This document shows, piece by piece, positions 42,001 through 51,000 of a stretch of DNA of 64,000 nucleotides. Origin of the DNA: an uncultured Planctomycetaceae bacterium (GTDB lineage: Bacteria; Planctomycetota; Planctomycetia; Planctomycetales; Planctomycetaceae); NCBI GenBank assembly GCA_963815195.1, contig CAWFGE010000010.1, positions 224,001 through 288,000 of the forward strand, given 5' to 3'. Within the stretch, counting starts at the first letter, position 1; each line of letters opens with the position of its first letter. The position numbers are program-made.

Positions 42001-45000
42001 CGCGGTTTTCTTCGGTCGAAGCCGGATCGCAGCAGAGATAAACGCCGTAAAACCCGCTGCCTTCAAAATCGTGATGCCAGAGGTTCGCCGCTTCGACATA
42101 ACCCGGATCGACGAGTTCCCAATAAAACCGGCTGCTCACGCTGTCGCCGACGATCACCCAAAGCAACTGCGGGGCTGGCCAGAACGGGCTGGACGCGGAC
42201 GGAGCCGGCGTCAAGGACAGCACGTGCTGCTGGAAGGCGTGCTCTTGCGGGATGACGGTCACGCCGCCCTTCGGCTTCGCTTCGCGGGTGTCGCGTTCGA
42301 GCGTTCCCGCGGGCCAGGCGGCACAATGTTTCTCGGCGAGGCGGAGGATCTCGTCCCAATCCGTGTTGCCCGCCACCGCGAGCACGATGTTCCCGGCTTT
42401 GTAATGCGCATCGTGATAGGTTCGCATCTGCTCCACGCGGAGCGCGGAGATGCTTTCGGTCGTGCCCAGGATCAGCCGTTCCAAAGGATGGCCGCCGAAG
42501 TGCTCGGTCATGGCCCGCTCGTAGGCCACCCAAAAGATTTGGTCCTTCGACATCGCGATTTCTTCGAGGATGACTTTTTTCTCCAGATCGAAATCCGACT
42601 CGCGAAGCGCGGGCGTTAATAGCACCGACAATAGTTCAAACGCTTCCGGCAGATACTCCGGCAGGACGGCGGTGTGGAACGTGGTGACTTCCTCGCTGGT
42701 CGAGGCGTTGCTGTCCGCCCCGATTTCGTCGAACTTGCGGTTGATGTCGTCGGCGGTGTAGATCTCGTTGCCTTTGAAGGCCATGTGCTCCAGAAAATGG
42801 CTCACGCCGTTGACCTCGGCGGTCTCGTCGCGGGAGCCGGTCCGCACGGCGAACTCCAAGGCCACGCTGTAAACCTGCGGGTTGAGTTCGGCGATTACGG
42901 TCAGGCCGTTGTCGAGTTGGGCTTTATGAAAATTCACGGGGGATCTCCAGCGGTTGGGGGCCGATCGTCAGCACGGTCAAGTCGGAGAGGGGATGCTCGT
43001 CCAAATACTTTTGGATGGACGCCACGGTGAGGCCGTCGATTTTGGCTTTGACCTCGTCGAGCGTGAGCACGCGCTCCAGATGATGCCAATGCGTTGCGAT
43101 CGAACGGGTGCGGGCCCGGGTGGATTCCTGCTGCATGATGAGCGAGCTTTTCGCGGACGCCTTGCAGCGGTGTAGTTCCTCCTCGGTGATGCCGCCTTCC
43201 AGCTTGCGGATTTCTTCGAGTGTGACGTTCAGCGTTTCCTGGGCGCGGTCGTTGGTGGTGCCGGCGTAGCAGATCATTCGGCCTTCGTGCTTGAAGCCGC
43301 TGAGCGACGCCGAGACCGCATAGCATAGGGCGCGTTTTTCGCGGACCTCCGAAAACAGCCGGCTGCTCATGCCCTGCCCCAAGACCGAAGCCGCCGCCCA
43401 CGCCGCGTAGTATCCGGGATCGGAAAAGGTCGGCCCCCAATAGGCGATGCCGATGTGCGTTTGCTCGGACTTGTGCATGACGTGATCGTGACTCGGCCCG
43501 CCGGGCGAGGTGTCGAACGTCGGCTCCGGCTTAGGAGCCCATTCTCCGAAACACTTTTGCACTTTGGCCTTGATCTCTTCGTAATCGACGTTGCCCGCGA
43601 TGGCGAGAATCGTGCCGCTCGGCCGGACGCAGCGGTCGTAATGTTCCCGCACCGACTCCGCCGAGATCAAAGGCAAGTCGGCGAGCGTGCCATCGGGCGG
43701 CAATCCCCACGGGGCTTCGTAACACCGGCGTTGCAGTTCCGGGATGATTTTTTGCTGCGGCTCGTCTTCGACCGCCCGCAGCGATTGCGTCACGCCCATC
43801 CGGACCGCCTCGAACTGGTCGGCCGGCAAATGCGGCCTCAGCAAGATGTCGGCATAGATGTCCAATGCCTGCGGCAAGTTCGCCGCGAGCATCGCCCCGC
43901 TCAAGGTGAGGAAGGAATTGTTAGGCGACTCGCTGCCTTGAACCCCCAAGCCATCGAGTGCTGCGATCAACTCCCGGCTGTCGCGCTCGCCCGCGCCGCG
44001 GGTGATGAGGTCGCTCAAAATCGCCGCCGTCCCGTTGTGGCCGAGCGGTTCGTAATTGCTGCCGGCCGGCACCAGAAGCGAAAACGCGGCGGACTTGACG
44101 CTGGTCATCGTCTCGACCAATAGCGTCAGCCCGTTCTCCAAGGTGTGGGCGTAAATATGTTGTTCCTGCATTCTGTCTCCGTTCCATTGAGAACCGGTCC
44201 TCCCTCACGAGGATCTTGGGCGTCAGCGCGCTCGCTGCTTGATCTATGGTAACTCAAACTGTAAGCGTTTGGGTGGCTGGGGCGCAAATCCCCTTCGGAA
44301 TAAGGCTTGAACTAAGAATGCTGGGGCAGTGCGGGGCGAGAAAAATCTCACACGGCCCCAGGCCTCAAATCTGCTTTTTCCTTGGAACATTCCTTTGCGC
44401 CCCAGCCACCCTGCCGGTCCGCCGCCAGTCCTAAGTATTGATGATGTTTCGGACGCTGGCAAGGTCGCTCATTGGCGGGCTGGTCAAAGGGCGGATTTTC
44501 GCCGCGAAGCGGCGACAGCGAACTTAAGAATTCAAAACAACCAATGTGTTGCTAGCGCCGCTTCGCGGCTTCACATAATGCGCGATTTTGGATCTTTCAA
44601 GAGCCGCGCACGAAGTAAGCGGTTTTCAAGGATTCACACAATGCAAAACCGCTTTGGCTTTCAAGAGCCGCGCACGAAGTAAGCGGTTTTCAAGGATTCA
44701 CACAATGCAAAACCGCTTTGGCTTTCAAGAGCCGCGCACGAAGTAAGCGGTTTTCAAGGATTCACACAATGCAAAACCGCTTACTTCGTGCGCGGCTCAG
44801 GCCTTTTAGGAACTCCTGAAATTCATAAGATCGTTCTTCACTGCGTCTTTGGACTTTCCTCGATGCTGCGTGATTCTTTGAAAGGCCGGGGCGACGTGAG
44901 TTGGGCGGGCGGGAACTCGGCCCATTCGGGGTTGGCCAAGAGCAGATGCCGGCGGCCCACGGCTTTGGGATCGAGGATCGTCAATTTCCGGGCCGAAAGG

Positions 45001-48000: not shown

Positions 48001-51000
48001 CTGGCGAAAACATCCACCAACAGGAGACCGCCCACGGCGAGCGTCAGCAAATACAGCGGGGCCGACTCGTAATGCACGCTTCGGCGCTTCGCCGTTTGCG
48101 CAGAGGAATCCGCGGGTAAAAACTCACGCGAGGATTCCGGGACATAATGCATGGAAAGTCGGAACAGGAAGAGTTAGGGAACCACGAATGACACGAATAA
48201 ACCCCCTTGGTGCAAATCAAAGGCAGATTACGATCAGGATTCACTCAAACGGTAAAGACTTTAACCACGAAACACACGAATGACACGAAAAACAGCCAGA
48301 ATTCTCTGAAAATCTTCTGCCTTTCGTGTGATTCGTGTGTTTCGTGGTTCATCCTCTTACAGTTTGAGGATTACGAGGCACGGTGCCGATGCGTCTTGCG
48401 ATTCCGTGCATTTCGTGGTCGACATTTTCTTTCTTAAATGCCGGTTTGGAGTTGGCGGAGTTCGCGGGGCAGGGGGAACGTCACGTGCTCTTCGCGGATG
48501 GTCGCTTCGCGGACCGTGGCGCCGTAATTCTCCGTGAGGAAATCGACGCACTCCTGGACCACGACTTCCGGGCGCTCGCGCCGGCGGTGATCAAAACGGT
48601 GTTTACGCCCTCGAGCCATTTCTGGCGAAGCTCGTGAGCCCCGTCGATCAAATAGGCCGGCTTGCCCAAGTCCATGCCGATCTCCTGCAGCCGCCGGCTG
48701 TTGGAGCTGTTCTGGCTGCCCAGGACGATCACCAGGTCGGCCTGCGACGCCAACTCGGCCACCGCTTCCTGGCGGTTCGTCGTCGCGTAGCAAATATCCT
48801 CCTTGGGAGGCCGGGCGATGTGCGGAAAGCGGGTTTTAAGGGCCTCGATCACCAGGTTTGCCTCGCCTACGCTGAGCGTCGTCTGCGTGAGATAGGCGAT
48901 TTTGTCGTCCGGTCCGAAGGGCAGCTCCGCGACCTCTTCGGGCGTTTCCACGAGGGTGATGCTCTCCGGGGCTTCGCCCATCGTGCCGATGACCTCGTCG
49001 TGCCCATCATGGCCGATGAGGATAATGTGATACCCGCCGCGGGCAAAGCGAATCGCTTCCAGATGCACCTTGGTCACGAGCGGGCAGGTGGCGTCGATCG
49101 TTTGCAGCTTGCGGGCCTTGGCCTGGTCGCGGACTTCAGGCGAAACGCCGTGGGCGCTATACAGCAGGATCGAGCCTTCGGGGGCCTCGTCGATGGAATC
49201 GATGAAGGTCACGCCCTGTTTGGTGAAGCGCTCGACCACGTATTTGTTGTGGACGATTTCGTGATAGACGTACACGTCGGAGCCGAACATGCGGATCGTC
49301 TCATCCAGACAATCGATGGCCATGTTCACGCCCGCGCAAAAGCCGCGCGGATTGGCTAACAGAATTTCCATCGTGGATTACTTTCTAGCGGGCCGAGGAC
49401 AACCGAGGCGGAAAACCAACCCGCGCGCTGCCAACGAATCGGCCCCTGGATCCCTAGGGTGATTTGCTTCCAACGTTTCCAACATCGAGGAAACCGCAAC
49501 AAGCCGAATTGTATATTGTATCACGCAAAATAGTCCCGCGTCATGGTTTAAGAGCGATCGGGAAAAAACTTTCCACGATCAACCGAAACTCGCAGGCCTG
49601 CCTCCGGTCGCTTGTTCGACGGAATCGGGGCTAGCGCCCTGCGGCTAATGAATGGGAAATCACGGGCGGCCCCGGCGACTTTCACGCGGCGCGTTTGCCG
49701 GGGCGGTTTGATTCCGGGGCGGGCGGTTGGATTGGGGCCAGGGCTTGGGCGAGTTTTTTCTTGTTGCGGCCGGCGTGGTTGAGGAGATCCAGAAACCACG
49801 GGGCAAAGCGTTTGGTCTGATAGAGCACGTGGGCCAAAGGGGTCAGCAGCACCAGCCGGCGATTTTTGCGGATGGCTTTGATGGCCCGATCCGCGACGCG
49901 GTCTTCGGTCGTGCAGATCCAGCGGGGAGGTTCGGGGGCGGGTTTGGCCTTCTCGCCGGTTTGCGCGGATTGATACAGCTTCGTCCGCACCGGTCCCGGA
50001 CACAGGGCCGTCACCCCGATGCCCTTGCGGCCGTATTCCGCGCGGAGGGCTTCGCTGAAACCCACGAGTCCGAACTTGCTTACGTGATACGCCGCGAACC
50101 GGCCGCCGGCGACCAGTCCCGCGATGCTGCACACGTTCAAGATGTGCGCTTCCGGGCGGTCCATCAGCACCGGTAAGAGCTCCCGCGTGAGTTGGATCGG
50201 CGCGTGCAGGTTGATCGCGAGCAGCCAATTCCATTGCTCGGCGGTCATTTTGTGCGTCGGGCCATAGTAGGCGACGCCCGCGTTGTTGATGAGAATATCC
50301 ACGTGCCGCCAACGCACCAGGACATCGCGGACCGCGGCGGTGATCTCGTCGGGCTTCGCCAGGTCGCAGCGCCGGCCGAGGGCTTTGACTTTGAGAGCCG
50401 TGACCTCAGCCACGACGTCCTCCAGTCCCGCCTGGTCCACATCGAGCAAAAACAGGTCGGCCCCTTCGCGGGCCAATGCCACGGCCAGAGCCCGGCCAAT
50501 ACCCGAAGCGGCCCCCGTGATCAGGGCCCGTTTTCCGCGGATCGATTTCATCTGGCAAACTCCCGTCGGTTGGCTTGGTGAGCGCTCTTGGTGCGGCGCG
50601 TTTTCATTCCGGCTGCATCTATGGCTTGTATTCGGAACCGTCGAGATTGAGTGGAGGCAGACCCTCCTTTTTGCGGCCGAGATTCGGGTTATTAAACCCG
50701 TATCCCGCCCGCCAAAGTCGATCGATGTCCGTGTCCTTCTTCCGGTCCGTCGTGCACCCCGAAAGGATCACGAGCAAGAACGGAAGCAGCCAGCGGGTTT
50801 TGGGAGCCATTCGGAAATCCTTTCGCGATCGAACGAATTCCGGCACCGACCGCCATGCGCAAGGGGACTTGCGGTGCATGGCAGCCGATGGGCTCTCAAA
50901 CGGTCGAGGCTTTTGATGCAGTCTGATACCCGGAACGTCGGCGCGGAGTGTACCTGAAAGGGCGACACCAAGCCAAGACGGGTTTCAGAGCCAGCGGTTA

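Follow-up and report, generated by a model that had tools for sequence, protein, structure and literature searches.

A P1B-type ATPase and an HflK-like SPFH subunit in one protein of Planctomycetaceae, with two separately encoded partner genes

We find that one gene in the window (the whole stretch of 64,000 nucleotides that was analysed) encodes a single chain in which an intact P1B ATPase is followed by one additional membrane helix and then by a complete HflK-like subunit. The fusion is fairly likely to be the subunit that carries the client in a scaffold of HflK/HflC type, made of three subunits and dedicated to a transition-metal pump. Its candidate partners are an HflC-like and an HflK-like gene elsewhere in the genome, and because they are kept though scattered, they point to an unstudied scaffold around a metal transporter. 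In the literature searched (supplements were outside its scope) we found no published description of a P1B::HflK fusion; operons or fusions of this kind may appear in a Saier-lab survey of uncharacterised P-type ATPase families.

Architecture of the fused protein

The gene at 44838-48152(-) is a single open frame of 1104 aa with zero internal stops (Table 1), and we regard it as real with near certainty. The Pfam domains E1-E2_ATPase (143-321), Hydrolase (338-578) and Band_7 (736-939) reproduced exactly those of the first-pass annotation, in the same frame. The CPC, DKTGT and SEHP motifs by which that annotation had recognised a P1B ATPase were all located (300-302, 344-348 and 382-385), along with TGES (197-200) and GDGIND (565-570), so that the TGE, DKTGT, HP, GDGxND and M4 Cys-Pro of P1B-type pumps are all present. 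NCBIfam TIGR01525 scored 528 bits, above its cut-off of 346. The AF2 model has the eight-helix P1B topology with MA and MB, and residues 26-675 align to 7qbz and 4umv.

The ATPase had been described as continuing through extra membrane helices, which proved to be one helix: only residues ~710-733 are hydrophobic across 103 homologs (mean hydropathy 1.71 for 715-733; windows starting at 665-695 average -0.85 to 0.31). Residues 678-709 are amphipathic in the same homologs, with pLDDT mostly below 55 in the AF2 model. Since eight pump helices would leave the C-terminus cytoplasmic, the ninth would carry the SPFH part across to the periplasmic side, where it also lies in HflK. This part is HflK-like along its whole length: E. 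coli HflK can be aligned with it from the anchor helix through the SPFH domain to the coiled coils (E 1e-21). A single anchor, SPFH domain and coiled coils place it with HflK (SPFH3); the HflK equivalog grouping does not include it (TIGR01933, 138 bits against a cut-off of 159), and it forms a branch separate from canonical HflK. Two invariant histidines, H802 and H909, lie in the fused SPFH part on its putative periplasmic side, the W-x3-H loop being modelled with pLDDT 49-66.

Table 1. Features of the fusion gene and its downstream region (positions in the window)
Feature	Position	Strand	Basis
Whole gene, P1B-type ATPase fused to HflK-like SPFH subunit	44838..48152	-	1104 aa; frame, Pfam, NCBIfam
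Short N-terminus, res 1-30; contains His2 and His27, lacks a CxxC metal-binding domain	48063..48152	-	H2 in 91/103 and H27 in 95/103 homologs; CxxC in 1/65 broad fusions
Membrane helices MA, MB, M1, M2, res 31-141; conserved E123 and E126	47730..48062	-	AF2 helices; each Glu 103/103
Actuator domain (TGES) and M3-M4, res 143-321	47190..47726	-	Pfam E1-E2_ATPase
CPC metal motif of M4, C300-P301-C302	47247..47255	-	103/103 homologs; 65/65 broad fusions
DKTGT phosphorylation site, D344	47109..47123	-	Motif in sequence; homolog conservation
SEHP nucleotide-domain motif, res 382-385	46998..47009	-	Motif in sequence; homolog conservation
M5-M6, res 621-670, with N633 and H654-E655-x-x-S658	46143..46292	-	H654/E655 align with HEGxT of P1B-4 pump sCoaT
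Amphipathic linker, res 671-709, putatively cytoplasmic	46026..46142	-	Modelled with low confidence; spans 25-66 aa in relatives
Single extra membrane helix, res 710-733, equivalent of HflK anchor	45954..46025	-	Aligns from E. coli HflK 81 onward; hydropathy
SPFH/Band 7 domain, res 736-939, putatively periplasmic	45336..45947	-	Pfam E 2.9e-21; E. coli HflK E 1e-21
W-x3-H loop motif of pump-linked subunit, W798 and H802	45747..45761	-	H802 in 102/103 homologs; 63/65 broad fusions; absent in 24 canonical and partner HflK
HPP motif before coiled coil, H909	45420..45428	-	103/103 homologs; 64/65 broad fusions; no His there in 24 canonical and partner HflK
Coiled coils of HflK type plus cap helix, res 916-1053, including a lineage-specific insert of ~50 aa (res 948-998)	44994..45407	-	Model and alignments; long insert in 10/65 broad fusions
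Three REP-like palindromic repeats, 64 nt each, downstream	44594..44798	.	240 BLAST matches >=24 nt in genome

Among 251 class genomes, 111 have a stop-free match from the ATPase end into the SPFH domain, after removal of G437 and G453 (split form) and G474 (gene split in frame) from 114 matches; this recurrence rules out an assembly artefact. Chance or assembly error was further ruled out by 217 homologs of the junction half among 8000 scored candidates, all 120 listed carrying Hydrolase and Band_7. Decay of this copy was also rejected: 26 of 343 conserved columns differ (median 7), but the three closest relatives differ at 36-39 and have most of these changes too, and every catalytic and metal residue is spared. 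The neighbouring ispH in the window has a likely indel. The 64-nt REP-like repeats are genome-wide and stand outside the pump system.

The proposed conservation across Planctomycetia holds as recurrence, but the distribution is patchy: the fusion is present in 67 of 151 genomes of its own family and was not found in 13 of the 21 sampled families of the class. Beyond Planctomycetia, a point previously left open, fusions were found in samples of three other phyla. A metagenome locus scan found nothing, and a scan of genome contigs with generic motifs returned mostly unrelated P1B pumps, which were kept as background.

Partner genes and co-occurrence

The fusion stands alone at its locus in this genome. 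A separate HflC-like gene lies at G000:C10:185294-186334 and a separate HflK-like gene at G000:C11:57612-58697. In the tree, both fall together with the genes that accompany the fusion in operons of close relatives (support 99). They score 344-385 and 222-254 bits against the operon partners of G003/G455, as compared with 72 and 50-61 bits for the canonical pair. By score and tree position, the two orphan genes are shown to be orthologs of those operon partners. The canonical hflK-hflC pair (C22), which is also present, separate and on a different branch, was rejected as partner on its lower scores and its branch. The two orphan genes went unnoticed in the first-pass annotation.

The operon order is fusion-C-K in 13 of the 18 intact class fusion loci fetched. 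At the cut-offs used, none of the 151 family genomes has some of the three genes without the others: the same 67 hold all three, 42 of them as an intact operon and 25 with the genes not all adjacent, and some of the latter may be contig breaks. The separated cases include the single-contig genomes G479 and G495, where the parts are ~1 Mb apart. Because most of this co-occurrence tracks a single clade of genera, the 67 genomes do not count as independent cases. We consider it very probable that the partners work with the fusion.

In complex prediction, the fused SPFH part with the HflC-like orphan scored 0.58 versus 0.02 for the best control; runs agreed in at least 96% of contacts and partner pLDDT was at least 75. 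The mark for this prediction is reached by 116 of 157 solved complexes and 2 of 215 mismatches, and scores at the mark but not above 0.60 came from only 18 solved complexes and both mismatches. The predicted complex lends weak support to the pairing, and its pass may stem from likeness to solved HflK/C. The earlier idea of a pump built into an SPFH cage is thus strengthened by two dedicated partners that always co-occur and by the full-length likeness to HflK; the cage, the position of the pump inside or outside the ring and the metal are still conjectural.

The 110 flanking ORFs of 29 loci included one CbiM as the only metal gene, no metal regulator and no ftsH; they were picked by a simple score with a minimum of 80 aa, so small genes may be missed. 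A fourth small anchored gene had 13 matches among the ORFs of fetched loci, but a 6-sequence HMM did not detect it in this genome (best E 0.23). No shared upstream dyad stood out in the 29 regions (top z 3.7 versus ~2.4-3.2 in shuffles, GC-rich), and none of the dyads was a Zur/Fur-like box.

Metal site and ATPase subtype

The membrane signature consists of CPC in M4, Asn in M5 and H[Q/E]xxS in M6. Among 65 broad fusions, CPC and the M6 His are invariant (65/65 each), the His being followed by Q (58) or E (7) and the last position being S (60) or A (5). P1B-1 pumps (Cu+, CopA) carry YN in M5, MxxSS in M6 and an N-terminal CxxC, and the M5 and M6 motifs are visible in the CopA rows of our alignments. 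The fusion has FAFGLN and FHELGS at these positions, falls short of TIGR01511 (392, cut-off 397) and lies outside the Cu-type branch, and the Cu+ exporter label (JGI annotation) was rejected for its lack of P1B-1 motifs. P1B-2 (ZntA) combines CPC with M5 Lys and M6 Asp (PMC8880997); here CPC is present, but N633 and H654 replace Lys and Asp, and TIGR01512 scores above its cut-off (425 vs 313.5), whereas the ZntA equivalogs stay below theirs. P1B-4 (sCoaT) has SPC in M4 and HEGxT in M6 (PMC8880997), which the fusion lacks, having CPC and H[Q/E]xxS; a functional resemblance to P1B-4 remains. In the P1B-6/CtpC-like signature N-X18-H-N-X-(S/T) spans M5-M6 (PMC13460109), where the fusion has N633-X20-H654 followed by E/Q, not N. 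Judged by motifs, the signature matches no P1B subtype among those checked, and it speaks against the Cu+ label.

In fold searches, which covered the ATPase part only, the best match was sCoaT (PDB 7qbz; PMC8880997) with Z 34.7, rmsd 6.7 and 611 aligned residues, followed by ZntA (30.5); by sequence alone, the best PDB matches are Cu+ CopA pumps. sCoaT likewise has no classical metal-binding domain and its M6 His-Glu is aligned, but where sCoaT has SPC and HEGxT the fusion has CPC and H[Q/E]xxS, and it adds an M5 Asn and the fused scaffold. CtpC is similar in having CPC with M5 Asn and M6 His (PMC13460109). Two P1B pumps were found in this 94.6%-complete genome, the second being CopA-type. A divalent ion (Zn, Co, Mn or Fe) is the most likely cargo, and we think this rather probable.

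Discussion

In our model, the three subunits would form a ring resembling the E. coli 24-mer, in the repeating order K*-C-K-C, and a ring shared by all three is likely. The pump-less HflK would space the pumps out by keeping some K positions free of a bulky pump, with a predicted ratio of ~1:1:2 and up to ~6 pumps per 24-mer. The ring would cluster and shield the pumps and roof their periplasmic mouth, where H802/H909 may bind metal. P1B pumps normally export, and by analogy, transport from cytoplasm to periplasm seems somewhat favoured, with controlled delivery a more likely role than bulk detoxification. Cage, metal and direction are what we infer.

There are precedents. In E. coli, HflK/C surround FtsH (PDB 7vhp, 7vhq, 7wi3, 9cz1, 9cz2, 9paw; PMC12048511, in the part available). 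The K-type and C-type partners and the aligned parts are common to both, but here the client is covalent and a pump, there are three subunit types rather than two, the fusion adds the W-x3-H loop, the HPP His and the ~50-aa insert, and the canonical pair is separate in the genome. The M. tuberculosis effluxosomes PacL-CtpC/G/V also cluster and stabilise P1B pumps by co-encoded scaffold proteins; PacL, however, are small and non-SPFH and bind the cytosolic domain, with no fusion and no periplasmic cage (PMC13460109). Human stomatin, an SPFH oligomer, associates with AQP1 and UT-B in the accessible portion of PMC12407830, but this system is eukaryotic and non-covalent, with passive channels.

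Split operons (P. aeruginosa paFlo5-7 with hmtA; Burkholderia, Rhizobium, Klebsiella and other Planctomycetota) are another close parallel, with three SPFH genes and a P1B ATPase in one unit. PA2439-PA2435 is given as HflK, HflC, HflC-family, hypothetical and hmtA (PMC4542158, available part), and some of our loci have this order. The first SPFH gene has W-x3-H and HPP like the fused subunit (P. aeruginosa is linked by gene order and annotation), but its product starts with a domain of 5-6 helices that belongs to no Pfam family. A gene of its own encodes the ATPase, which is of another clade and has an HNxxT-type M6 in proteobacterial operons. In our quick tree, built without 60 of 75 Cu-type rows, without background rows below 500 aa and without HmtA itself, the fused ATPases form a clade apart from five split-operon ATPases (SH-aLRT 94 vs 100).

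These operons bear on a rival reading of the same scaffold, in which the cage and histidines would, under limitation, collect Zn or Cu in the periplasm and pass it to the pump for uptake, contrary to the usual export by P1B pumps. HmtA reportedly mediates such uptake. In the available parts of three reports, PA2439-PA2435 is induced 5.6-14-fold by Zn depletion (PMC4542158), its proteins are raised at the protein level (PMC11761036) and Zur binds its promoter (PMC8531726), but hmtA mRNA is not repressed by Zn in the last. A split operon in Paraburkholderia adjoins a zinc ABC transporter and PCu(A)C, the fusions have no cytoplasmic metal-binding domain, and their conserved His would face the periplasm. 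However, the fused ATPases belong to a different clade, and gene order and annotation, not sequence, link them to P. aeruginosa. We consider uptake unlikely.

The HflK part and its partners could instead join FtsH-containing cages and set pump turnover, with no metal role. The full-length likeness to E. coli HflK, a single FtsH-like gene in the genome and P. aeruginosa proteins read as FtsH interactors (PMC11761036) fit this tether, but the separate canonical pair, the invariant His motifs of the pump-linked subunit and the absence of ftsH from the flanking ORFs make it quite improbable. Neutral operon compaction, with the SPFH part merely anchoring or stabilising the pump and independent partners, agrees with locus L200 (ATPase, long HflK, C, K; a plausible pre-fusion state), the in-frame split in G474 and the absence of the whole set from many relatives, but is very hard to reconcile with the strict co-occurrence, the retained invariant residues and the unrelated transporters fused to the same slot.

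These transporters suggest an extension of the dedicated scaffold. An ArsP_1 permease occupies the slot in three loci, and P0162 joins a CDF exporter and an HflK-like domain in one protein; the ArsP fusions lack W-x3-H and the CDF fusion lacks both His. Tentatively, a three-subunit SPFH ring could form a modular metal-transport cage with a slot for a P1B pump, ArsP permease, CDF or 5-6 helix domain, and within its chamber the periplasmic His site of the pump-linked subunit could receive or donate metal. On that view the SPFH cage would itself be active in transport, the signature a new P1B subtype and the P. aeruginosa hmtA operon its unfused form; we hold this to be doubtful as a whole.

The contents of bacterial SPFH cages other than FtsH are largely an open question. 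As far as the accessible part of a 2026 study goes (PMC13086221), deletions covering all nine P. aeruginosa SPFH genes gave little phenotype and deleting the three of the operon only slight ones, with no metal assay in that part. The covalent fusion names its client and opens the question to a direct test through purification of a single protein. The finding suggests a function for the Zn-regulated SPFH trio adjoining hmtA. It also adds a P1B pump whose metal site is unclassified, and a complex in which the genes remain coupled even where the operon has come apart.

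The fusion gene and its domains

The fusion is real: one unbroken frame carries both parts (table). The protein passes the cut-off of the heavy-metal P-type ATPase model TIGR01525 and falls below that of the hflK model TIGR01933 (138 vs. 159 bits). E. coli HflK, from its anchor through the cap, aligns with residues 714-1062 (E 1e-21), except that the coiled coil of the fusion contains roughly 50 inserted residues. An AlphaFold2 model (103 homologs as input; mean pLDDT 80.7, pTM 0.61) shows the P1B fold up to residue 670, a helical linker of low confidence, one helix at 710-727, and then the SPFH domain with long helices up to residue 1053. 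The first-pass annotation had placed extra membrane helices between the two parts; a helix is indeed present, but only one, together with an amphipathic linker, because a single hydrophobic stretch follows M6 across the fusion family. Since the C-terminal end of P1B pumps is cytoplasmic and one further helix follows, the SPFH part would be periplasmic, like that of HflK.

All 14 fused subunits examined carry W-x3-H and HPP motifs in this presumably periplasmic part. The long HflK-like proteins of unfused units keep both histidines in 9/9 and the tryptophan in 8/9, and neither motif was found in 24 canonical or partner HflK sequences.

Locations of the features
Feature	Location	Remarks
Fusion gene	window 44838-48152(-)	1104 residues
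E1-E2_ATPase	fusion residues 143-321	Pfam
Hydrolase	fusion residues 338-578	Pfam
Band_7	fusion residues 736-939	Pfam
REP-like palindromic repeats	window 44594-44798	one side of fusion; 64-nt unit, 240 matches genome-wide
REP-like palindromic repeats	window 48179-48419	upstream of fusion; upstream type, 27 matches genome-wide
ispH (LytB)	window 48434-49371(-)	frame shift near 48575, C-terminal part in other frame
HemN-like radical SAM gene, 181-aa protein without Pfam match, flavin halogenase-like gene	window 36014-39773(+)	in a row
HflC-like orphan	C10:185294-186334	~82 kb from fusion
HflK-like orphan	C11:57612-58697	
5-6 helix N-terminal domain examples	L177:7553-9382; L182:6206-8101; L200:9667-11709	
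Burkholderia sp. FXe9 split-operon ATPase	L041:10206-12148	spread over two frames in record

Distribution

A junction-half query, with 8000 candidates scored, returned 217 homologs, and both domains were present in all 120 listed. Within the class sample, 114 of 251 genomes matched, and in 111 of the 251, covering 8 of 21 families, no stop interrupts the frame between the end of the ATPase and the SPFH domain. Further classes of the phylum carry the fusion: genomes G244, G072, and G225 appear in a 150-row listing that stems from 301 genomes. A query with a more basal fusion detected it in 16/121 genomes of the G640 phylum (titled Abditibacteriota in the record), at least 4/151 of that of G639 (Victivallales), and at least 2/151 of that of G638 (Acidobacteriaceae; G908 enters only the totals of this sample). 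The last two counts are possibly too low, with 5/15 and 5/65 matching genomes inspected, picked for long frames. Armatimonadota and Ca. Fervidibacter are the source names on three homologs. A 1331-aa homolog in a eukaryotic protein collection (P0006) is probably bacterial contamination.

Scattered partner genes

In the window the fusion stands without partner genes, with ispH on one side and two M16 peptidase genes on the other. A sequencing indel most likely accounts for the frame shift in ispH. Among 20 fetched loci of relatives, 18 have an intact fusion, and in 13 of these an HflC-like and then an HflK-like gene follow it. The source genome has ten Band_7 matches, including a canonical hflK-hflC pair on contig C22 and two orphans. 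Aligned to the operon partners found in G003 and G455, the orphans reach 344-385 and 222-254 bits and the canonical pair 72 and 50-61; the orphans also cluster with those partners at support 99 (FastTree, 73 rows).

Clear orthologs of the fusion (E <1e-55), the C-type (<1e-40), and the K-type gene (<1e-25) occupy an identical set of 67 of 151 family genomes, which include kin and are not independent; the cut-offs were placed at gaps in the score lists, chosen after viewing them. Forty-two of the 67 have intact operons, 19 have C and K away from the pump, 3 have K away, and 3, including the source genome, have all three apart. Contig breaks may explain some separations, but in G479 and G495, each a single contig, about 1 Mb lies between the parts.

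When the SPFH part of the fusion was co-folded with the C-type orphan, the score was 0.58 against 0.02 for the best control. The runs shared at least 96% of contacts, and partner pLDDT was at least 75. The mark is passed by 116/157 solved complexes and 2/215 mismatches, and passes at or below 0.60 comprise only 18 solved complexes and both mismatches. The prediction thus hints at a complex, and the pass may be explained by likeness to solved HflK/C.

In 13 loci of other lineages (L156, L157, L167, L168, L170, L223, L224, L232-L236, L053) a small anchored protein of ~160-200 aa follows the cassette. None of six scanned had a Pfam match, and a search of the source genome did not find it.

Unfused cassettes and other front-slot transporters

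An unfused three-SPFH unit begins with a long HflK-like gene, continues with C and K, and ends in a P1B ATPase gene of its own. The long gene encodes an N-terminal domain of 5-6 helices that matches no Pfam family and may be an unknown transporter or a pump-docking module. The unit occurs in Burkholderia, Paraburkholderia, Rhizobium, and Klebsiella plasmids, and in Planctomycetota too, where 12 of 20 loci have the order long HflK-C-K-ATPase (one of them reaches a contig end and is missing its first gene). In L200 the ATPase comes first, and 7 loci are without an SPFH neighbour. By annotation, P. aeruginosa PA2439-PA2435 has the same gene order.

An ArsP_1 permease fills the front slot before C and K in three loci of the Acidobacteriota sample, and a CDF exporter is joined to an HflK-like domain in one protein (ArsP_1 permease::HflK-like and CDF::HflK-like fusions: L225-L227, P0162, P0163). 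The ArsP fusions keep only the second histidine, and the CDF fusion has neither. An ArsP_1-type gene also lies upstream of five split operons, and one genome (G617, L237) combines the fused system with a split operon of the order ArsP-long HflK-C-K-ATPase.

Metal site and direction of transport

C300, C302, N633, H654, E655, and S658 are invariant in 103/103 close homologs, and 65 fusions across phyla share CPC, N, and H-[Q58/E7]-x-x-[S60/A5]. The Cu+ signature of CopA pumps, also visible in the aligned CopA rows, is not matched by this pattern. CPC rules out P1B-5 (PCP) and P1B-7 (CSC). As given in excerpts of the sources, the Lys/Asp pair of P1B-2 and SPC/HEGxT of P1B-4 (PMC8880997) and N-X18-HNx(S/T) of P1B-6 (PMC13460109) are not matched either. 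The best fold match of the ATPase is sCoaT (Z 34.7, rmsd 6.7, 611 aligned; ZntA 30.5, CopA 29.4), whose His-Glu aligns with H654/E655; CopA is the top match by sequence and by Foldseek. Our best guess is a divalent cargo. Besides the fusion, the source genome has a single P1B pump, of CopA type, and one CDF match.

We take export as the default direction; the main rival is that the system imports metal under limitation. In the excerpted literature, Zn depletion induces PA2439-PA2435 (PMC4542158), whose protein level is raised (PMC11761036); Zur binds its promoter and Zn did not repress hmtA mRNA (PMC8531726); HmtA is reviewed as a Cu/Zn importer (PMC8456098); and the SPFH trio, named paFlo5-7, has slight phenotypes (PMC13086221). 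A quick 68-row tree places the 23 fused ATPases together on one branch (SH-aLRT 94), apart from the split-operon ATPases (100), so the fused ATPases appear not to be simply fused HmtA orthologs, in a tree that does not include HmtA itself. Flanking genes and upstream DNA favoured neither export nor import.

Novelty and proposed mechanism

The individual parts are already known, and the domain combination is in databases under one-sided names. Literature searches found no publication on the fusion; the excerpted text of PMC2636767 is without the term 'ATPase', and a term search of the first half of PMC11672702 gave nothing on the fusion. Tested here are the retention of scattered partners, the histidine motifs common to fused and unfused forms, and the separation of the ATPase clades.

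The three subunits most likely form one ring resembling E. coli HflK/C, described in part of PMC12048511 as 24 alternating subunits. It would cluster pumps, as PacL scaffolds do with mycobacterial P1B pumps (excerpt of PMC13460109), and roof their outer mouth, comparable to the association of stomatin with AQP1 and UT-B (abstract of PMC12407830). The linker length, 25-66 residues, fits pumps inside or outside the ring. Fused and free K-type subunits would share its K positions, which would explain the constant retention of a pump-less HflK.
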